Assembly: GCA_964421145.1 (NCBI GenBank)
Contig: CAYQVM010000001.1
Coordinates: forward strand, 6,108-45,310
Direction of reading: 5' to 3'
Source of the DNA: an uncultured Planctomycetia bacterium
Lineage (GTDB): Bacteria; Omnitrophota; Gorgyraeia; JABMQH01
Length of the DNA: 39,203 nucleotides
A program made the position numbers and the translations under genes. This document shows positions 2,682-36,640 of the stretch, one piece after another. How positions within the stretch are numbered: position 1 is the stretch's first letter; the number at the start of each line of letters is the position of its first letter. Under the pieces are notes generated by a model. The model saw only the letters and a program-made list of their open reading frames with translations, was not told the origin of the DNA and made no database searches.

Positions 2682-3928
2682 CCCAGTCAGAATTGAAACG
2701 CATAGCGCAAATCGAAGGCGTGGATGTCGATCTTTTAAAAGAAAATATCCGCCTGGGCAAAACCGTGGTCCCCAATAATACAAAAAGAAAAATCGCTAAA
2801 CCTTGCGCTATAGGGGCGGGCCTGCGCACAAAGGTAAATGCGAATATAGGAACCTCACTGGATAAACCCAGTCTGACTGAGGAATTAAAAAAATTAGAGG
2901 TCTCAATAAAAGCGGGGGCTGATGCGGTAATGGATCTCTCAACCGGCGGGGACCTAAAAAAGATCAGAAAGGCGGTCGTTAAGAATTCCTGTATACCTGT
3001 AGGCACTGTGCCTATATATGAGGCCGCGGTAAAAACCTCCCAAAGAAACAAGGCGATAAAAGACATAGACCCGAAATTGTTCCTTGACGTGCTGGAGGAA
3101 CAGGCGGAAGACGGAGTAGACTTTTTCACGATACACGCCGGAGTCACAAGAGAGGCGGTAGAAAGGCTTAAAAATCAGGGCCGCCTGCTTAATATAGTCT
3201 CAAGGGGAGGGGCTATCCTGACCGAATGGATGCTCGCCAACAACGAAGAAAATCCTTATTATGAAAATTTCAGCGAGGTCCTGAAAATTTCCAAAAAATA
3301 CAACATAACCTTAAGCCTTGGCGACGGACTCAGGCCGGGCGCCATTCAGGACGGGACAGACAGGGCGCAGATTCAGGAGCTGATTATCCTCGGGGAGCTG
3401 GCCAAAAAATCAAGAGAGGCCAACGTACAGGTCATGATAGAAGGGCCGGGACACATCCCGCTTGACCAGATTGAGATGAATGTAAAACTGGAAAAATCAC
3501 TGTGCGACGGCGCGCCGTTTTACGTCTTGGGGCCGCTGGTAACCGACGTCGCGCCGGGCTACGACCACATAACCAGCGCCATCGGCGGAGCGATAGCGGC
3601 GAGTTACGGGGCCGATTTTTTATGCTATGTAACGCCTTCGGAGCATCTACGACTGCCTACCGTCGAAGACGTGGAAATGGGTGTAATAGCGTCCCGAATC
3701 GCCGCACACGCCGCGGATATCGTCAAGGGGGTGCCCAAAGCGGCCGAATGGGACCGGAAGATGTCGGCCGCAAGAAAAAAAAGGGACTGGAACAGGCAGT
3801 TCGACCTCGCCTTGGACCCGAAAAGGCCTAGGTTATTAAGAAAAATCTCAAAACCGGATTCGGAAGATGTCTGCACGATGTGCAGCAAATACTGTTCCAT
3901 AAAAATAATAGAAAAGCGCTTAAAATGA
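2678..3928 (+). CDS. thiC: Phosphomethylpyrimidine (HMP-P) synthase
   Basis: 416 aa with ThiC-family sequence throughout (GTVPIYEA, FFTIHAGV, MIEGPGH, APFYVLGPLVTDVAPGYDHI) and a C-terminal Cys cluster CTMCSKYC. Confidence 0.92.
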   Translation: MTQSELKRIAQIEGVDVDLLKENIRLGKTVVPNNTKRKIAKPCAIGAGLRTKVNANIGTSLDKPSLTEELKKLEVSIKAGADAVMDLSTGGDLKKIRKAVVKNSCIPVGTVPIYEAAVKTSQRNKAIKDIDPKLFLDVLEEQAEDGVDFFTIHAGVTREAVERLKNQGRLLNIVSRGGAILTEWMLANNEENPYYENFSEVLKISKKYNITLSLGDGLRPGAIQDGTDRAQIQELIILGELAKKSREANVQVMIEGPGHIPLDQIEMNVKLEKSLCDGAPFYVLGPLVTDVAPGYDHITSAIGGAIAASYGADFLCYVTPSEHLRLPTVEDVEMGVIASRIAAHAADIVKGVPKAAEWDRKMSAARKKRDWNRQFDLALDPKRPRLLRKISKPDSEDVCTMCSKYCSIKIIEKRLK

Positions 3929-4032: not shown

Positions 4033-4934
4033 TGAGCCTTTTAGTGGTGGGTTCGGTAGCTATTGATTCGGTTGAGACGCCTTTCGGCAAAAGGGAAGAG
4101 GTGCTGGGCGGTTCTGCTATTTATTTCTCTATAAGCGCGTCGTTTTTCACGAATGTCAAGCTTGTAGCCGTTATCGGCCGTGATTTTCCAAAGCAATACA
4201 TTTCCAGGTTAAAGTCCAGGGGAGTGTCTCTGGAGGGCCTTGAGGTCAGTAAAGGCAAAACCTTCAGATGGAAAGGGAAATACGAATACGACCTGAATAA
4301 GGCGAATACGATATATACAAAACTAAACGTATTTAAAGATTTCTCTCCCAAAATACCTTACGCCTACAAGAAGACACCGTATCTGTTCCTCGCCAATATT
4401 GATCCTGAGCTTCAGCTGAATGTATTAAAAAACGTTGATTCGCCCCGCCTGGTGGCGTGCGACTCTATGAATTTTTGGATAACCAATAAATTGAACGCCT
4501 TAAAGAGGCTTCTTAAAAAAGTGGATGTATTCCTAATCAACGATTCGGAGGCAAGGCTGCTATCAGGGGAAAGCAATCTGCTAAAGGCCTCAAAATACAT
4601 ATTTTCCCTCGGGCCAAGAAGGCTTATAGTCAAGAGAGGGGACAGCGGGGCGATATTCATTAAAAATGACGGCAGCTTTTTTAACACACCCGCCTATCTG
4701 ATGGAAAACCTTAAGGATCCGACAGGCGCCGGTGATTCATTCGCCGGAGGATTCATGGGATACCTGAGCAAAACGCATGAGTTGAGCGATAAGGCCATGA
4801 AACGGGCCGTTATCTACGGAACTATAATGGCCTCTTTCTGTGTCCAGGATTTCGGCCCGGCCAGATTAATAAGGCTACGGTCCTCTGACATAGAAAAAAG
4901 GGTTTATGACTATAAAAAAATTACGCGAGCGTAG
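4032..4934 (+). CDS. PfkB/ribokinase-family carbohydrate or nucleoside kinase (substrate unknown)
   Basis: GTG start preceded by GGAGG. Carries the PfkB signature DPTGAGDSFAGGF near the C-terminus. The last 10 nt overlap tRNA-Gly. Confidence 0.8.
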   Translation: MSLLVVGSVAIDSVETPFGKREEVLGGSAIYFSISASFFTNVKLVAVIGRDFPKQYISRLKSRGVSLEGLEVSKGKTFRWKGKYEYDLNKANTIYTKLNVFKDFSPKIPYAYKKTPYLFLANIDPELQLNVLKNVDSPRLVACDSMNFWITNKLNALKRLLKKVDVFLINDSEARLLSGESNLLKASKYIFSLGPRRLIVKRGDSGAIFIKNDGSFFNTPAYLMENLKDPTGAGDSFAGGFMGYLSKTHELSDKAMKRAVIYGTIMASFCVQDFGPARLIRLRSSDIEKRVYDYKKITRA

Positions 4935-4995
4935 TTCAGTGGTAGAACACCAGCTTCCCAAGCTGGATATGTGGGTTCGATTCCCATCGCTCGCT
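4925..4995 (+). tRNA. tRNA-Gly (anticodon CCC)
   Basis: Folds as a cloverleaf by hand: acceptor GCGAGCG/CGCTCGC, D arm GTTC..GAAC, anticodon stem CCAGC/GCTGG with loop TTCCCAA, and T arm GTGGG-TTCGATT-CCCAT. 71 nt, no encoded CCA. Confidence 0.9.
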
Positions 4996-9891: not shown

Positions 9892-10238
9892 GTTTTTTTC
9901 TGAAAATACTTGAATATCTGGCCCAGGGTTAGGGAATCCGCCTTCGTAAACTGTATTCCTGTTTCATAATAACCGCTTGTTTTATCCCCGCCCATTATTT
10001 CAATCTTTCTTGTCCATACGACTATTCCGTAAACAACCGTTGTCTTGTTTGTGGAGCCTGGGATTTCAATTATCAACTTAAGCGCGGTCCCTTCCCTTAA
10101 CTTCTCATTCAAAGACAGGCGAATCCCCCCGCCGCTGATATCTTTTGCTGTAGCCATTTTTACAGGCGCGTTTTCAACAACCTCATAGCTTATCTTCATC
10201 GGCGAATCTATCCGCTCAAATACCCGATTTTCCCTCAT
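9888..10238 (-). CDS. Single-domain PilZ protein (c-di-GMP receptor)
   Basis: RVFER (RxxxR) near the N-terminus and DISGGG (DxSxxG). 116 aa. Confidence 0.8.
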   Translation of the reverse strand: MRENRVFERIDSPMKISYEVVENAPVKMATAKDISGGGIRLSLNEKLREGTALKLIIEIPGSTNKTTVVYGIVVWTRKIEIMGGDKTSGYYETGIQFTKADSLTLGQIFKYFQKKT

Positions 10239-10242
10239 CTAG

Positions 10243-10320
10243 CCTCCCATTTTACCCTGATTTTTCTAATCTGTAAAATGATCCCGAGCTTCCCTGGTCT
10301 TGTTACTCTGAAGCGAGGGA
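10243..10320 (-). promoter_or_regulatory. Two-hairpin 5' leader motif, copy 1 (upstream of the PilZ gene)
   Basis: RNA sense: UCCCUCGCUUC..GAAGCUCGGGA, then CAUUUUAC..GUAAAAUG, then GGGAGG. About 85% identical to copy 2 and structurally matched by copy 3. Confidence 0.6.
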
Positions 10321-10334
10321 CTATGTATTACGGT

Positions 10335-10393: not shown

Positions 10394-11944
10394 ATGAAAA
10401 AACCGATAGAGACTAGCTACGAAGATAAATTTTTTAACAAGCTTCTTAACAGCGACGATCTCAGGAAAGAAGAGGAGATCCTTGGTTCTTTTTTCAAAAA
10501 ACCTATATGGTGGCTGATAAAAGCCATTAAAAAAACAGCACCTAAATTTAAAAATACCTCAATGGCAAAATGCGCCTTCTGCAGGAAATCCACAAAAAAA
10601 AGATGGCGGTGCTCACAAAATCTGCTGAAGGTAGTCCGTAAGGCCAAAAAGACCGGGAGGGTGCAGATCTTTACCTGCCCCTGTAATCTGAGCGGATTTT
10701 GCCTGCCTGTCGCGCAGGGAGGTAAAATTTACGGCTATATAGGGATGTGCCACCTGGATACTGAAATCCCGGATCAGGCGCGGAAGCTCTTCATAAACTT
10801 TATGAATACGCTGATAAAAGATATACAAAAAGAACTGGAGTTGTCAAAATTGTATGAAACGATAAGGCCGAGGGCGATAGCCCTTTCGACTGTGCATACG
10901 ATTCACCGGCTTATTAGCTCGACCCTCGATTTAGACGAATTGCTTCCCCGCATCGCGCGGCTTTCTATGCAGGTCATGCAGGCCAACAGATGCTCTGTAA
11001 AACTGCTTGATAAGGAAAGGGGTGTCCTAAAACCGGTTACAACGATAGACCTGCGCACAAAAAGAAAACTTTATCCGAAAGAACTTAAGGTAGGCAGGGG
11101 CGTACCGGGCAAAGCGGTAAAGCAGGAAAAGGTCCTCAAGGGCCACAACTATCTTTCTGTTCCGCTGATTGATGAGGATGTAATAGGTGTGATCACTATG
11201 TATGATAAAGTAAACAATAAATCATTCACTCAATTTGACCAGGAAATAATGATGACCATAGCCGAGCAGGCGGTCATAGCTATTAAAAACGCCCAGCTAT
11301 ACAGGGAACAGGAAAACCTGGCTATAAACAGCATAAAGTCACTGGCAACAATATTGGATACGAGAGGCCCTACGGCTTTTATACCGCGGACCGCATTTGT
11401 AAAGATTGTCATAGAAATCGGCAGGGAGATTGGGCTAAACGAAGCGGAGATCCGAAGCCTCCAGTTTGCGGCGCTGCTTCATGATGCCGGCCAACTGTTT
11501 GTCCCCGACGAAATCATGTCAAAACCGACAAAACTGACAGGGGAAGAGTACCGGTTAATCAAAGAGCATCCGGCAAAAGGCGCAAAGATGTTTGAGCCGA
11601 CCAAGTATCTTAAACCCGTGATTCCGATAATACTTCACCATCATGAAAATTACGACGGAAGCGGCTACCCAAACAAATTAAAGGGTAACCAAATACCACT
11701 GGGTGCGCGGATAATGGCTGTCGTAAGCGCGTTTCTGGCCATGATAACGCCCCGGGCCTACAGGGTCACGAGAACGGTGGAGGAGGCCAAACAGGAAATC
11801 GTTAGAAACAGCGGTGTTCAATTTGACCCCAAGGTAGTGGCCACCTTTATAAAGATATTGTATAAAAAAGAGGTACAGCAAATTATAGAAGAGGAGTATA
11901 GCAGTGGAATTGAGCAAAGCCCTAAAGGTTCCGATATATTTTAA
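10394..11944 (+). CDS. Cys-rich sensor + GAF + HD-GYP domain protein
   Basis: N-terminal Cys-rich region (CAFC, FTCPC), a GAF-like middle (LDELLPRIARLSMQVMQANRCSV.. VIGVITMYDK) and a C-terminal LHDAGQ and HHHENYDGSGYP. ATG 10394 preferred over the track start at 10358. Confidence 0.8.
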   Translation: MKKPIETSYEDKFFNKLLNSDDLRKEEEILGSFFKKPIWWLIKAIKKTAPKFKNTSMAKCAFCRKSTKKRWRCSQNLLKVVRKAKKTGRVQIFTCPCNLSGFCLPVAQGGKIYGYIGMCHLDTEIPDQARKLFINFMNTLIKDIQKELELSKLYETIRPRAIALSTVHTIHRLISSTLDLDELLPRIARLSMQVMQANRCSVKLLDKERGVLKPVTTIDLRTKRKLYPKELKVGRGVPGKAVKQEKVLKGHNYLSVPLIDEDVIGVITMYDKVNNKSFTQFDQEIMMTIAEQAVIAIKNAQLYREQENLAINSIKSLATILDTRGPTAFIPRTAFVKIVIEIGREIGLNEAEIRSLQFAALLHDAGQLFVPDEIMSKPTKLTGEEYRLIKEHPAKGAKMFEPTKYLKPVIPIILHHHENYDGSGYPNKLKGNQIPLGARIMAVVSAFLAMITPRAYRVTRTVEEAKQEIVRNSGVQFDPKVVATFIKILYKKEVQQIIEEEYSSGIEQSPKGSDIF

Positions 11945-12185
11945 AATAATCCGGTTTTTTCATGAAAACCCGACAAGCATAGATACGCCGAGAGGCGTGG
12001 CTGCGTGGACGGGGGAGAGTAGGCAGGACGCCAAGAAAGCGCTCTTAAAACTGGCTGAATTAAAGATTATCACGCCGCATAGGGTCTCGTCCACAACGGC
12101 GTATAGCTATACGAGAGATTCCAAATTAATCAAAAAGATAGGGATGGCCTTAAAGAAAATTAAAAAGTCCCTCGCTTCAGAGTAG
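11904..12185 (+). CDS. Small hypothetical protein, possibly winged-helix-like
   Basis: 93-aa ORF with a GTG start 41 nt inside the upstream gene. The helix-rich sequence IYFKIIRFFHENPTSIDTPRGVAAWTG..AKKALLKLAELKII is suggestive only. Its last 6 codons lie in leader-motif copy 2. Confidence 0.4.
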   Translation: MELSKALKVPIYFKIIRFFHENPTSIDTPRGVAAWTGESRQDAKKALLKLAELKIITPHRVSSTTAYSYTRDSKLIKKIGMALKKIKKSLASE

Positions 12186-12247
12186 AAGGACTATGGAAGC
12201 TCGGGATCATTTTACATATTAAGAAAAAACAGGGTAAAATGGGAGGG
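12168..12247 (+). promoter_or_regulatory. Two-hairpin 5' leader motif, copy 2 (upstream of the coiled-coil lipoprotein gene)
   Basis: UCCCUCGCUUC..GAAGCUCGGGA, CAUUUUAC..GUAAAAUG, GGGAGGG. ATG at 12253. Confidence 0.6.
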
Positions 12248-12252
12248 TGGAT

Positions 12253-12540
12253 ATGAACAAAAAAGGTGTTGTGGTTTTTCTGGTAGCGGCGGTTGCATGT
12301 ATGACATTTTTGGGCTGCGCCAGCGTACCGAAGGAAGAACTAGATGAAAAAGAGGCTATAATAAAAAATCTGAATACCGAGATAGCCGGCCTTAAACAGG
12401 ATATCGAAAGGTTAGAGAGGGCTAACGAAGATCTCACAGCCTCAAGATCCGACTTGGAAGAAAAAATATCAAGGCTTGAAAATGAACTGTCGGAAAAGCA
12501 AAAAGTAACCGAAGAGAAAGTCGAACCAAAGATTAAATAG
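12253..12540 (+). CDS. Coiled-coil lipoprotein
   Basis: Signal peptide with lipobox FLGC, followed by a heptad-like E/K/L-rich region. ATG 12253 has better SD spacing than the GTG at 12247. Confidence 0.6.
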   Translation: MNKKGVVVFLVAAVACMTFLGCASVPKEELDEKEAIIKNLNTEIAGLKQDIERLERANEDLTASRSDLEEKISRLENELSEKQKVTEEKVEPKIK

Positions 12541-26571: not shown

Positions 26572-26767
26572 GGGGCCGATAAAGGCAAACCCTGAGAAAT
26601 CAGGGGACAGGCTAAATGCCTGACCGGAAGGTCGCAAAGCCTCAGGCCTAAGCTGTTATGCATGCCATGAAGGAAGGTGAGGCAAAAGAGCAAATAAAAA
26701 GCATAACAGTATGGTAGCTGGGCTGCCGAAACGCAGAGCAACTTAAGCAATGCGCTTTATTGGCTCC
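26572..26767 (+). promoter_or_regulatory. c-di-GMP-I (GEMM-I)-like riboswitch aptamer with extra peripheral hairpins
   Basis: Contains GGCAAACC-CUGA-GAAA-UCAG-GGGAC, GCAAAGCCUCAGGCCUAAG and UAUGGUAGCUGGGCUGCC. These match the GEMM-I consensus as I recall it, including a GAAA tetraloop and the 11-nt receptor. A 13-bp closing helix joins 26572-26584 to 26755-26767. Confidence 0.8.
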
Positions 26768-26777
26768 TTTTAGTAAG

Positions 26778-26808
26778 CGATATGCAAATGCGGCATATCG
26801 TTTTTTTT
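26778..26808 (+). terminator. Intrinsic terminator (expression platform of the riboswitch)
   Basis: CGATATGC / GCATATCG forms an 8-bp stem with a 7-nt loop, followed by T8. Confidence 0.75.
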
Positions 26809-26873
26809 ATTTGCATTTTTCTCTGCACTTAGTATATAATATAATAACTAGATATATAATATTTAGTCCTATA

Positions 26874-27626
26874 ATGAGCGAATCTTTAGATGAATTAAAA
26901 CGGGTAGAAGTAAATCAGTTCCAGGAAGAATTGGCAAAAACATATTTTTCAACAGGTTCTTCAAAAGAAGAGTATTCCTCACAGCCTAAACCTGCCGCCA
27001 AAGACAAAAACAATAGGAATAGAAACGGCCTTTTATTGGCTATTTTTCTAACCTTATTAATTATCACATCCATTGCCTTCCTGGCATTTAACCGCTTGAC
27101 TATTAATGTAAAGATAACTCCTGTGCCCAATTCCGGGATAGACAATAGCGCATATACCGGGATAGTCCCTTTTAATAAAAACGGAGAGCTTAATAATGAC
27201 CTTGTTAAACATGTGGTATTCTATGAAAATGCCGGAAATGAAAGCGCCTGGGGCAAGGATATTACCGTACTTTCAAATGAGGACATATCAAAAAAGGCTG
27301 TGTTGGGAATAGATTTTGTTAAACCAATAAGCCTAAAGGAGAAAATACTTTGTTTTCTTGCCAGGGGCAATAGCGGGGGCGAAGAATTCAGGATTGCGTT
27401 GCGCGATAATGAGAATAACATTTGTTATTCAAAAATCAGCGCCATAGAAAATGGGTGGCAAAAATTTATTGTAGACGGACTGACGGCCCAAGATTTTATA
27501 GATGCGGAAAAAATTAACCATATTGATTTTGAAGTAAATCCCGCAGAAAAAATTTTTTTAAACTCTTCAACTATTTACCTTAAGGATATGTATTTGGCTA
27601 AACAGGAAGGAGGCCCCGAGAAATGA
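26874..27626 (+). CDS. Single-pass membrane protein with an extracytoplasmic beta-rich (carbohydrate-binding-module-like?) domain
   Basis: Cytoplasmic N-terminus, TM helix LLLAIFLTLLIITSIAFLAF, and a ~170-aa C-terminal domain. ATG 26874 chosen because the track start (TTG 26760) lies inside the riboswitch closing helix. Confidence 0.55.
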   Translation: MSESLDELKRVEVNQFQEELAKTYFSTGSSKEEYSSQPKPAAKDKNNRNRNGLLLAIFLTLLIITSIAFLAFNRLTINVKITPVPNSGIDNSAYTGIVPFNKNGELNNDLVKHVVFYENAGNESAWGKDITVLSNEDISKKAVLGIDFVKPISLKEKILCFLARGNSGGEEFRIALRDNENNICYSKISAIENGWQKFIVDGLTAQDFIDAEKINHIDFEVNPAEKIFLNSSTIYLKDMYLAKQEGGPEK

Positions 27627-32009: not shown

Positions 32010-32240
32010 CTAAACGGCCACGCAGGTAAGTGTCTTGGATACGCCTTTTACCTTAAGCAGCTTGATAGTTATCAACCTGCCCAATTCGTCCATATCGGAA
32101 GCTTCCACCTGAATCACGGCATCGTAAGGGCCCGTAACCGCATCCGCAAATTTGACCCCTTTGATATTCCTGACCTCTTTCAATGTTTCCGACAGGCTTG
32201 TAGCCGCAAGATTCATCAATACATAAGCTTTGACAGCCAT
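32010..32240 (-). CDS. Stand-alone Lrp/AsnC-type ligand-binding (RAM) domain protein
   Basis: 76 aa. AYVLMNL...EVRNIKGVKFADAVTGPYDAVIQVEASDMDELGRL resembles the C-terminal effector domain of Lrp/AsnC regulators and has no HTH. Confidence 0.6.
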   Translation of the reverse strand: MAVKAYVLMNLAATSLSETLKEVRNIKGVKFADAVTGPYDAVIQVEASDMDELGRLITIKLLKVKGVSKTLTCVAV

Positions 32241-32246
32241 CTCATA

Positions 32247-32328
32247 CCTCCCATTTTGTCCTAATTTTACTTAACCCACAAAATGATCCCGAGGCACCCT
32301 TGTTTTACATACCCCCGGTGCCGAGGGA
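32247..32328 (-). promoter_or_regulatory. Two-hairpin 5' leader motif, copy 3 (upstream of the RAM-domain gene)
   Basis: RNA sense: UCCCUCGGCACC..GGUGCCUCGGGA, CAUUUUGU..ACAAAAUG, GGGAGG. Both stems carry compensatory changes relative to copies 1 and 2. Confidence 0.6.
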
Positions 32329-34776: not shown

Positions 34777-34915
34777 TAAAATCACCTCCCTTTCCCTGTT
34801 TTAGACAATTATATCACGCAAAATTAAACTTTCAAAACAATTTCTACAGACCTAACTATTAGAAATTGATACCGAGCGGCCGCTGGGTACTTAATTGGCC
34901 GCGAGTGTACCAAAA

Positions 34916-36640
34916 TTATTTTGTCTTTTTAAGACGCCTTAAGACCTCTTCGGCATTGAAACAATTCAGAATATTTTTCTTCTCAAGCCAGCCCCTCCTT
35001 GCTACACTAAGGCCGTATTTCATGTTGTCAAGCTGATCGACATGGTGCGTATCCGTGCCGATGGCAAGCACGACACCCATGGACCCTGCCCTTCTTGCGC
35101 TTGTATCATCAAGGTCCAGCCGGGATGGAAACGAGTTTATCTCCAGGGCAGTATTCGTATCTCTGGCCGCTTTAAAGACCTCATCCATATCAACGGCGTA
35201 AGCGTCTCTCGAACCCATCAACCTGCCGGTGGGATGTGCTATTATATTGACATACCTGTTTTGCATAGCCTTTATTATCCTTTTGGTCAACTTCTCTTTT
35301 GACTGTTTAAATCCGCTGTGGATTGCCGCGACAACAATATCAAGTTCTGACAGGACTTCATCTTTAAAATCCAGGGAGCCATCATCCAGGATATCAACCT
35401 CGGCGCCAGCCATGACCCTAAAATCCTTTAGCTTCTTATTAATATTTTTTATGTTTTTTACCTGATTAAGCAATTCCCGCTCCTTAAGGCCTCCCGCAAC
35501 AGCCAAAGTTTGAGAATGGTCGGTGATCGCCAGATACTTATACCCTCTTCGGATCGCCGCTCTTACAAGGTCATCTATTGAATCCGACCCATCACTTGCC
35601 TTTGTATGGACATGAAAATCCCCTTTTATATCTGTCAATTCTACTAAATGCGGCAATTTATTTTCAAGCGCCGCTTTGATCTCCCCCCTGTCCTCTCTTA
35701 ATTCCGGTGGTATGAACCTAAGCCTGAGAACCCTGTATATCTCCTCTTCTGTCTCCCCGCCTAATCTTTTATTGGTTTTAACCGAGAAAACGCCATATTC
35801 GTTTATCTTTAGGCCTTTTTTAACCGCCGCCTCCCTAAGCCGTATATTGTGTTCTTTTGAGCCCGTAAAATATAAGAGCGCGGCGCCAAAGCTCCTCGGC
35901 TCAACAGCCCTTACATCCACCTGCATATCCTCTTTTGTTATCGCGCTGGATTTAGTGGGCCCGTGCGCGAGAACCCTTTTAATAAAAGGAAGCTTTATGA
36001 AAGTATTCATCACATCTACGGGTGAAGTTGTTGTGATCAGTATATCTATATCCCGGATAGTCTCTTTCCGGCGCCTGAGGCTTCCACACGCCGCTATCTG
36101 GTTAATCTGCGAAGCATTCTTTAGGGCCAAGACTATCTCTTCGGCCATCGGCAGCGCTAGACCTAAGGAAACTCTCTCTTTACCTTTCCTTACAATCTGG
36201 ATACCTTTGAGTATATTCTCTTCGGTCTTCCGGCGTATTCCCGGAATGCTGCTTAACTTATGCGCCTTCGCCTTGCTTTCTAGGTCATTGATACTTTTTA
36301 TCTTAAGCTTATTCACCAATGTCTTTGCGGTCTTGGGCCCTATTCCGGGAATATCTATAAGCTTTAAAAATGCCGGTGAGACCTTTTTCTTCAGACCCTC
36401 AAAAAAGGCGACCTTGCCTGTCCCGATAAATTCCCGGATCTTCCCGGCAAGATCAGCGCCCACGCTAGGGATGTCCGTCAGCTCATCTCTCTTGGCGATT
36501 TCGCCCACGTCTTCCGAGAGGGCCTCTATATTCTGGGCAGCCCTTCTGTAGGCCCTGATCCTGAACGGATTTTCGGCTTGGACTTCTAATATTTCAGCGA
36601 TTTGGTTGAAGATTTCCGCTATCTTGAGGTTGTTGGTCAT
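34916..36640 (-). CDS. polX: Family X DNA polymerase with a C-terminal PHP phosphoesterase domain
   Basis: N-terminal HhH motifs (IPGIGPKTA), the Pol beta-like core GSLRRRKETIRDIDIL, and PHP motifs (DFHVHT, ITDH, GTDTH). Confidence 0.9.
   Translation of the reverse strand: MTNNLKIAEIFNQIAEILEVQAENPFRIRAYRRAAQNIEALSEDVGEIAKRDELTDIPSVGADLAGKIREFIGTGKVAFFEGLKKKVSPAFLKLIDIPGIGPKTAKTLVNKLKIKSINDLESKAKAHKLSSIPGIRRKTEENILKGIQIVRKGKERVSLGLALPMAEEIVLALKNASQINQIAACGSLRRRKETIRDIDILITTTSPVDVMNTFIKLPFIKRVLAHGPTKSSAITKEDMQVDVRAVEPRSFGAALLYFTGSKEHNIRLREAAVKKGLKINEYGVFSVKTNKRLGGETEEEIYRVLRLRFIPPELREDRGEIKAALENKLPHLVELTDIKGDFHVHTKASDGSDSIDDLVRAAIRRGYKYLAITDHSQTLAVAGGLKERELLNQVKNIKNINKKLKDFRVMAGAEVDILDDGSLDFKDEVLSELDIVVAAIHSGFKQSKEKLTKRIIKAMQNRYVNIIAHPTGRLMGSRDAYAVDMDEVFKAARDTNTALEINSFPSRLDLDDTSARRAGSMGVVLAIGTDTHHVDQLDNMKYGLSVARRGWLEKKNILNCFNAEEVLRRLKKTK

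Follow-up and report, generated by a model that had tools for sequence, protein, structure and literature searches.

A two-hairpin repeat of Candidatus Omnitrophota at G-runs beside ribosome-binding sites and stable-RNA genes, probably a non-autonomous mobile element

REP/BIME sequences, REPIN-RAYT systems and palindromes derived from IS200/IS605 are short, multi-copy, extragenic repeats, whose imperfect hairpins carry conserved mismatches and show compensatory change. REP-type families occur in clusters and in either orientation, are transcribed together with their neighbours, and lack terminal inverted repeats (TIRs) as well as target-site duplications (TSDs). Hairpin ends together with strict polarity are the hallmark of HUH/Y1 single-strand transposition, as in IS200/IS605 and REP-RAYT. 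Members of the IS607 family, by comparison, are kilobase-scale, autonomous elements. They encode tnpA and a second gene, carry short direct-repeat motifs at their ends, lack TIRs and TSDs, and use a GG dinucleotide as target, with (G)GG preferred (PMC6188088). Bacterial MITEs (miniature inverted-repeat transposable elements), such as Correia/CREE, BOX, RUP, and ERIC, are small, non-autonomous and structured units in transcribed intergenic DNA, which are gained and lost between strains and can alter the expression of neighbouring genes (PMC3049150). Here we describe a further member of the small dispersed bacterial repeats: a previously undescribed, phylum-restricted two-hairpin repeat, present in four copies (c1-c4) in a 39,203-nt stretch of DNA from an uncultured bacterium of Candidatus Omnitrophota (contig CAYQVM010000001.1, positions 6,108 to 45,310; hereafter the window). 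We conclude that this element is probably a non-autonomous mobile repeat of about 75-90 nt, which is placed at G-runs and would be co-transcribed with its neighbours.

The copies and the host features that adjoin them are listed below, with the relatives used for comparison designated by L numbers. P1 and P2 denote hairpins 1 and 2, and SD denotes the Shine-Dalgarno sequence.

10249-10322, (-): element copy c1, upstream of the PilZ gene (sequence reading, fold, covariance models)
10243-10248, (-): host SD GGGAGG of the PilZ gene, with the ATG at 10238; also present in the element-free relative L126
10335-10363, (-): sigma-70-like promoter TTGCAA-17-TACTAT of the PilZ gene, kept in L126, L127, and L128 (sequence reading)
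12166-12240, (+): element copy c2, upstream of the lipoprotein gene (sequence reading, fold, covariance models)
12241-12246, (+): SD downstream of c2 and ahead of the lipoprotein gene (ATG at 12253); base 12241 supplies the closing G of P2
32253-32330, (-): element copy c3, a 78-nt block between ...AATAGAGA and GGGAGGTATGAGATG (empty sites in L123 and L124)
32247-32252, (-): host SD GGGAGG of the gene for a 76-aa AsnC/Lrp ligand-binding-domain protein, with the ATG at 32240; identical in the empty site of L123
34839-34917, (-), core 34839-34911: element copy c4, diverged (covariance models)
34808-34835, (-): promoter-like site of the host, TTGAAA-16-TGnTATAAT (11/12 match), a short way downstream of c4; kept in L123

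Direct reading of c1, c2, and c3 shows one common order: AGUCCCUCG, a variable stem of 5-6 bp, a loop of 16-19 nt, CUCGGGAUC, and then CAUUUUNN...NNAAAAUG, directly followed by GGGAGG, with the ATG 5-8 nt beyond. This confirms the three-copy architecture described in an earlier, sequence-only reading of the window, which had interpreted it as a cis-regulatory leader. Single-sequence folds and RNAalifold yield two adjacent hairpins, P1 and P2, in all three copies, with a conserved 2x2 UC/CU internal loop in P1. In c1, P1 is formed by GUCCC/GGGAU, the UC/CU loop and the inner stem GCUUC/GAAGC, and P2 by CAUUUUAC/GUAAAAUG, with base 10248, the first G of the SD, as its closing G. According to RNAalifold, five pairs differ on both sides between c1/c2 and c3; the claimed covariation of both helices stands. 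The 14-mer CTCGGGATCATTTT has three exact occurrences in the window and a further one with two mismatches; shuffled sequences contained 0.53 matches at ≤2 mismatches, and four were reached in 0/100 shuffles. The diverged copy c4 was recovered with a covariance model built from the three copies (20.3 bits) and scores 32.9 bits (E about 1e-5) with the model of the whole family. Its core reads GGUACaCUCG-CGGCC...GGCCG-CUCGGUAUC-AAUUUCU...AGAAAUU and is placed between the stop codon of polX (34916-34918) and the next gene's strong promoter-like site, with no adjoining SD.

The boundaries of the element emerge from comparison with syntenic contigs of relatives, which were obtained via PcrA orthologues (89% identical to the window protein in L123, 84% in L124) and HD-GYP orthologues (89% in L126, 93% in L127, 78% in L128). 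Homologues of these two proteins also place the window in Omnitrophota. Relatives with flanking proteins 78-89% identical have empty c1, c3, and c4 sites. At the c3 site (^ marks the junction), L123 reads ...TGTTAAAATCAGGTAATAGGGA^GGGAGGTATGAGATGGCC and the window ...TGTTAAAATCAGGTAATAGAGA(AGTCCC...78 nt...CAAAAT)GGGAGGTATGAGATGGCT; in a shorter view, TAATAGGGA^GGGAGGTATGAGATGG in L123, also rendered ...AATAGGGA^GGGAGGTATG, stands against TAATAGAGA(78 nt)GGGAGGTATGAGATGG in the window. L124 lacks the element here too and has a 29-nt spacer, and the two empty sites together fix the insertion bounds to within 1 nt. The SD GGGAGG is present in the empty L123 site and is therefore older than the insertion. 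The inserted block is flush against this SD, whose first G closes hairpin 2. We found no TSD at c3, as TAATAGGGA^GGGAGG becomes TAATAGAGA(element)GGGAGG with no base duplicated, and direct reading of c1-c3 revealed no TIRs, the ends AGUCCCUCG... and ...NNAAAAU not being mutually complementary. At the c4 site, L123 reads ...AGAAAAT^GTTTGAAAG... and lacks the element while keeping the promoter; in L124 the two flanking genes overlap, again with no element between them. Measured against the empty sites, the flush insertions at c3 and c4 are 78-79 nt long. The element is thus a discrete block with fixed polarity, flush junctions and a G-rich flank, in which the first host G supplies the closing C-G pair of hairpin 2. 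The connector AAAAUG-GGAGG, previously described as invariant, consists partly of the end of the element and partly of the pre-existing host SD.

Copy c1 sits between the PilZ promoter and the PilZ SD. This promoter had been pointed out in the sequence-only reading; it is present as described and is kept in three relatives, two of which are element-free at this site, so c1 is predicted to be in the 5' untranslated region (UTR). L126 and L128 have empty c1 sites, the former reading ...CGTAATAACCA^GGGAGGAATCCAATG (left side ending in AACCA), and in L127 all that is left is the 5' half of P1, fused to ...AAAATC..AAAGGAG, a deletion remnant. Copy c2 is kept in L126 (87.8 bits), where its five differences all fall in loops; it is also kept in L127, but is interrupted there at the P1/P2 junction by a GC palindrome of 20 nt and has stem mismatches, and it is missing from L128. 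A related difference exists upstream of tRNA-Gly(CCC): L126 has a full copy (4575-4652, 32.4 bits) that abuts the tRNA gene and carries the hairpin-2 variant GAAAUUUAC-UUCG-GUAAAUUUC, and the window, whose tRNA-Gly(CCC) is at 4925-4995, shows no full copy there and only a short A-rich ...ACTATAAAAAAATTAC at ~4895-4924 (+), which may be a deletion remnant or a site that was never filled. L123 has a strong copy before a PFL-like gene. Six further syntenic loci (about 121 kb), from relatives with PcrA or HD-GYP 61-84% identical, contain no copy, even with the filters off. Copies were hence gained and later decayed through deletion or insertion. Such patchy presence plus decay is the gain-and-decay pattern of a mobile repeat, and four copies in 39 kb and a presence/absence polymorphism with sharp boundaries fit such a repeat too. 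The palindrome inside the L127 copy (~2917-3026, (+)) is an observation in its own right: it is a perfect, GC-rich 20-nt palindrome, CCTGCCTGCCGGCAGGCAGG, located exactly at the junction (GGGATC^...^ATTTT), and may represent a second, even smaller mobile palindrome.

Searches beyond these relatives revealed a family. Rfam 15 contains no match to the element in the whole window at gathering thresholds, and around c3 (E≤10) only matches at chance level (E≥0.29), in agreement with the earlier statement that no named riboswitch or leader is recognizable; the Rfam matches elsewhere in the window are two tRNAs and one c-di-GMP-I riboswitch. Genomes were scanned with the pattern TCCCTCG-N20-45-CTCGGGATCATTTT. 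Eighteen loci match it, and the covariance model is matched only by five Omnitrophota loci and a second, tandem copy in L004. Each of the five loci has a complete hairpin 2, though the pattern did not demand one. Metagenomes were scanned with CTCGGGATCATTTT-N15-35-AAAATG, which leaves the 5' strand unconstrained, and about 35 model matches were obtained, all with YCCCUCG. Around 50 other metagenome matches to the pattern were rejected as chance occurrences, since they have no 5' strand, hairpin 2 or G-rich flank, and were kept as a control. Outside the window, the element thus occurs in Omnitrophota genomes and on metagenome contigs. Searches of plasmids, phages and viral contigs found no element, the sole viral pattern match failing the covariance model. 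No small dispersed repeat family of Candidatus Omnitrophota was found in Rfam 15 or in a limited literature search, and the literature on Omnitrophota RNA motifs yielded nothing relevant.

An alignment of 37 distinct sequences showed that 97.2% of stem cells pair and that 11 of the 18 pairs have changes on both sides (82 cells); when the pairing partner was slid by 1-3 columns as a control, pairing fell to 37-51%. The consensus of the element core is 5'-[R]G-YCCCUCG-(variable hairpin)-CUCGGGAUC-AUUUUNN-(variable loop)-NNAAAAU-3', and most copies begin with NG-YCCC. The apparent invariance of CTCGGGATCATTTT is partly a matter of ascertainment, as it was contained in both search patterns. The distal parts of the hairpins range from ~3 nt to >40 nt. 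Among the stem mispairs, G-U/U-G (8) are not in excess over A-C/C-A (14), which argues against a strand-specific functional RNA, for which such an excess is expected.

The genomic contexts of the copies are diverse. Protein genes downstream of the element are functionally unrelated and encode a GT2 glycosyltransferase, a response regulator, Trm112-like and lipoyl-domain proteins, AccB (after efp), RibH, FolE, YebC, and membrane proteins. Stable-RNA genes adjoin the element in both orientations. In the same polarity, tRNA-Pro (on two contigs), tRNA-Ala, tmRNA, and one tRNA-like gene begin 0-1 nt past hairpin 2; on the opposite strand, hairpin 2 meets the CCA ends of tRNA-Pro, tRNA-Tyr (twice), tRNA-Lys, tRNA-Ile, and tRNA-Phe and the 3' end of RNase P RNA. 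The element also fills a tRNA-Tyr/tRNA-Gly spacer, and a 16S-23S spacer contains three copies in its tRNA-Ile/tRNA-Ala part. The hairpin-2 end touches the neighbouring feature in all stable-RNA contexts, and hairpin 2 is 0-3 nt away from SDs. Tandem head-to-tail copies are present in L024, where they are stacked at a single SD, and in L004. A terminator-like hairpin comes after the element in three places, immediately in L020 and L078; in L004, copy A is followed first by 21 nt that match the tRNA-Pro 3' end and then by the terminator-like hairpin and a U run. Good or conserved promoters were seen upstream of the element in c1, L008, L018, and the copies at yebC.

Several of these loci have features of their own. 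In L004 (2719-3054), the two tandem copies are diverged, and each is followed by an identical 21-nt sequence, TGGTCGGGGAGGTGGGACTTG, the complement of the tRNA-Pro(GGG) 3' end; a terminator-like hairpin and UUUUAUU follow the first copy. At the opposite end of copy A, CCCCUC reads in the complement as an SD-like GAGGGG, and 9 nt beyond this end begins a small GIY-YIG gene. In L018 (~823-870, (+)), the element is directly followed by GGGCCCAUAGCUCAGCGGUAGAGCAGGUGACUCAUAA, a tRNA-Met-like 5' half that ends right after the anticodon loop; neither ARAGORN nor Rfam calls a tRNA there, and it may belong to an intron-containing or split tRNA gene. In L005 (739-874), L091, L042 (4781-4870), and L071, the sequence past hairpin 2 begins with GG(C/U)G..., is not called as a tRNA and would end in ...CCA on the other strand; they could be 3' fragments of tRNAs or CCA-ended RNAs that lack an annotation.

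What these contexts share is the sequence of the flank. We compiled the host sequence after ...AAAAU for 43 distinct copies, with 43 chance matches to the same pattern as control. Position +1 is G in 40/43 copies, which is partly forced by the search pattern; position +2 is G in 28 and A in 12, position +5 is G in 32, and position +6 is G in 33. GG at +5/+6 was found in 28/43 copies versus 2/43 control matches. The hairpin-2 end thus lies flush with the 5' border of G-rich DNA, approximately ^GGNNGG, a consensus that takes in GGGAGG, the complement of tRNA ends in ...CCC-N-CCA (TGG-N-GGG), and the G-rich 5' ends of tRNAs and tmRNA. The copies at yebC show that this target is separable from function. 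Here, the left flank ends in ...AT and the element in ...AAAAT^GGCTGGACAT (GGCTGG), so that the terminal AU rebuilds the start codon; the insertion point is within the original ATG-GCT-GGA, which provides a GGNNGG target that belongs to no SD and to no stable-RNA end. Because polarity is fixed relative to the G-run, c1 (-) and c2 (+), only 1.8 kb apart, are each co-oriented with their own SD, and copies next to the 3' end of a tRNA run antisense to it. In AT-rich intergenic DNA, G-runs would mainly be SDs, the G-rich 5' termini of genes for tRNA and tmRNA, and complements of ...CCA 3' ends. Targeting of G-runs would therefore make the element resemble a leader of mRNAs and stable RNAs, always co-oriented with the G-run.

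How does the element compare with the systems described above? Like IS607, it lacks TIRs and TSDs and is found at GG/GGG, where its insertions are flush with the 5' edge and show no visible duplication. Unlike IS607, it is ~80 nt long and non-coding, has two hairpins and a flank preference that reaches GGNNGG, and has no IS607-type gene linked to it. The hairpins, the polarity and the absence of TIRs and TSDs would fit REP/RAYT and IS200/IS605, but no associated Y1 gene was found for the element in the loci sampled. REPs have a GTAG head, are mostly 3' of genes and flank the RAYT gene, whereas our element lacks GTAG and has two dissimilar hairpins; IS200/IS605 elements insert 3' of a tetra- or pentanucleotide at their left end, whereas here the specificity is at the hairpin-2 end and for G-runs. 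It resembles classical MITEs in being small, non-autonomous, strongly structured, and polymorphic between relatives; MITEs, however, have TIRs and usually TSDs and a species or genus range, while this element has neither, is of fixed polarity and occurs phylum-wide. Riboswitches and protein-binding leaders are likewise found upstream of SDs, with a conserved junction, covarying variable hairpins and possible anti-SD/SD pairing, but the element has no coherent gene set, is found at tRNAs and in rRNA spacers in both orientations, decays, and is missing from orthologous leaders in near relatives. A recombinase acting in trans would move such an element. By analogy, the absence of TIRs and TSDs and the (G)GG target would best fit an IS607-type serine transposase, and the hairpins and strict polarity would agree just about as well with a single-strand mechanism of the HUH/Y1 kind (IS200/IS605 or RAYT-like).

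After insertion, the element is predicted to be co-transcribed and to fold on itself. The 5' CCCUC, which is able to pair with the SD, would then be held by the internal GGGA of P1. In c2 and c3, the unpaired fraction of the SD is 0.6-0.8, and it drops to 0-0.17 after in silico mutation of the P1 3' strand, when the 5' CCCUC captures the SD. In the minimum free energy (MFE) fold of c1, UCCCUC is paired with GAGGGA in codons 2-3 of the PilZ gene. The SD is thus predicted to be largely free in c2 and c3 and less so in c1. With the SD free, an insertion would be tolerated, and this may explain why stems are maintained in retained copies.

Several points weigh against a mobile repeat. No transposase or autonomous parent is linked to the element, although the open reading frames (ORFs) of the fetched loci were not searched systematically. 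One Y1_Tnp-like ORF was seen, in L121 (1504-2001, (+)), but in an element-free locus, and tblastn with it found no relatives in element-bearing loci, in a sample too small to exclude a link. The choice between insertion and precise deletion is inferred by parsimony from few relatives. The core is conserved over contigs of 34-71% GC, which is unusually deep for a selfish repeat. Finally, orthologous copies (c2 in the window and L126, the GT2 leader in L046 and L067, the yebC leader in L055 and L021) have intact stems despite diverged loops, which suggests that insertion was followed by constraint and that a host function is conceivable. Regarding L121, the Y1_Tnp (IS200/RAYT-like) ORF there (~1340-2001, (+)) lies in a 22-kb syntenic locus, and the ORF as called seems to be 5'-truncated.

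The constraint on stems is the starting point of one alternative, in which the element is a domesticated generic leader or spacer module that spread by transposition and of which many copies now serve the host, by insulating folding, protecting the 5' end, marking a processing site, or switching CCCUC between GGGA (SD free) and the SD. The stems preserved in retained orthologous copies, the phylum-wide conservation of the core, the position of hairpin 2 at 0-1 nt from the +1 of tRNAs and tmRNA and at 0-3 nt from SDs, the in silico sequestration of the SD on mutation of the P1 3' strand, and the pairing of UCCCUC with PilZ codons in c1 are all consistent with such a role. Near relatives, however, appear to manage with the same genes, promoter and SD and no element; copies decay (the c1 remnant and the c2 copy with its 20-nt insertion and mismatches in L127, the possible tRNA-Gly remnant in the window); both orientations would be transcribed in tRNA and rRNA spacers; G-U pairs are not in excess over A-C mispairs; and c4 adjoins neither an SD nor a stable RNA. 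We therefore regard general domestication as unlikely. A dedicated cis-regulatory RNA, either a riboswitch or a protein-binding leader with a regulon that includes the PilZ, lipoprotein/SPOR and AsnC-domain genes, was the proposal of the sequence-only reading and does explain why c1-c3 are directly upstream of an SD and start codon, c1 with a conserved promoter supporting a 5' UTR, and why covarying helices with conserved junction nucleotides match nothing in Rfam. It fails to account for the same unit at unrelated genes including tRNAs and tmRNA, at antisense ends of tRNAs and RNase P RNA, and inside rRNA spacers, for both orientations and tandem stacks, and for sites that are empty in near relatives, with c2 kept in two of them and missing from the third; moreover, distal hairpin parts of ~3 to >40 nt leave no obvious conserved ligand pocket. 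This makes a dedicated leader very improbable.

An even smaller chance is given to a guide-RNA scaffold, relic or active, in which the element would be the right end of an omega-RNA of the TnpB type (IS605/IS607 family) and the host flank the guide. The hairpin-2 end is always against a variable flank, the insertion signature is IS607-like, copy A of L004 has its 21-nt tRNA-Pro match followed by a terminator, and L020 and L078 have an immediate terminator. On the other hand, known omega-RNA scaffolds are much longer than the ~80 nt of this element with its variable hairpins, most copies are probably within longer host transcripts, and no tnpB-like gene was noticed beside any copy, in loci for which no systematic search was made. 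A more far-reaching version of the mobile repeat, which we consider speculative and unlikely, is that the element homes to SD-like G-runs (^GGNNGG) by an undescribed recognition, perhaps pairing of its C-rich 5' end or GGGA core with the target, and that retained copies were perhaps co-opted as a phylum-wide self-neutralising leader, in which the anti-SD CCCUC is held by the GGGA decoy and opening of P1 switches translation or stable-RNA maturation, or that element and flank are expressed as an omega-RNA-like guide.

Some narrower explanations were examined and rejected. A promoter inside hairpin 2 (TTTACA-17-TAAAAT in c1 and c2) would start transcription after the SD or inside the tRNA, and its hexamers covary as a helix; the good promoters upstream of the element in L008, L018, and c1 also disfavour it. 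P1 with UCAUUUU is unlikely to be an intrinsic terminator, since its loops measure 16-19 nt and the stem has a 2x2 mismatch close to its base, and the terminator scan made no call. A processing stem formed by leader and trailer around tRNAs is contradicted by L072, in which the variable parts of the upstream copy show no complementarity to those of the downstream one. An integrase att site was considered for the 21-nt duplication of the tRNA-Pro 3' end beside the tandem copies of L004, but does not extend to SD contexts. CsrA-type GGA sites in the loops were dismissed, as the loop motifs are limited to the window's clade, and replication-strand bias as a cause of orientation was dismissed because c1 and c2 are opposite within 1.8 kb.

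The element carries a caution for motif discovery: a conserved and covarying two-hairpin motif upstream of start codons can be a mobile repeat, and the covariation and "invariant connector" seen here reflect partly the host SD and partly hairpin maintenance. The element unites an absence of TIRs and TSDs, a fixed polarity and a placement next to the 5' edge of ribosome-binding sites or to stable-RNA gene ends. If the targeting rule is true, it would amount to natural, tool-like scarless insertion immediately upstream of SDs. Gain and loss of the element can also serve as a marker for strain-level evolution in an uncultured phylum.

Two further features of the window were observed. The c-di-GMP-I riboswitch aptamer (RF01051; 26574-26730, (+)) scores 49.7 bits, above the gathering threshold, and has long insertions in two hairpins; it is just upstream of an ORF (26760-27626) with no Pfam match, in a window otherwise rich in PilZ and HD-GYP genes. 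Just upstream of c2, an ORF of 93-94 aa with no Pfam match (11904-12185, (+)) overlaps the 3' end of the HD-GYP gene. Its orthologues are at 11511-11792 in L126, 2655-2936 in L127, and 11514-11798 in L128, so that it is called in 4/4 genomes.

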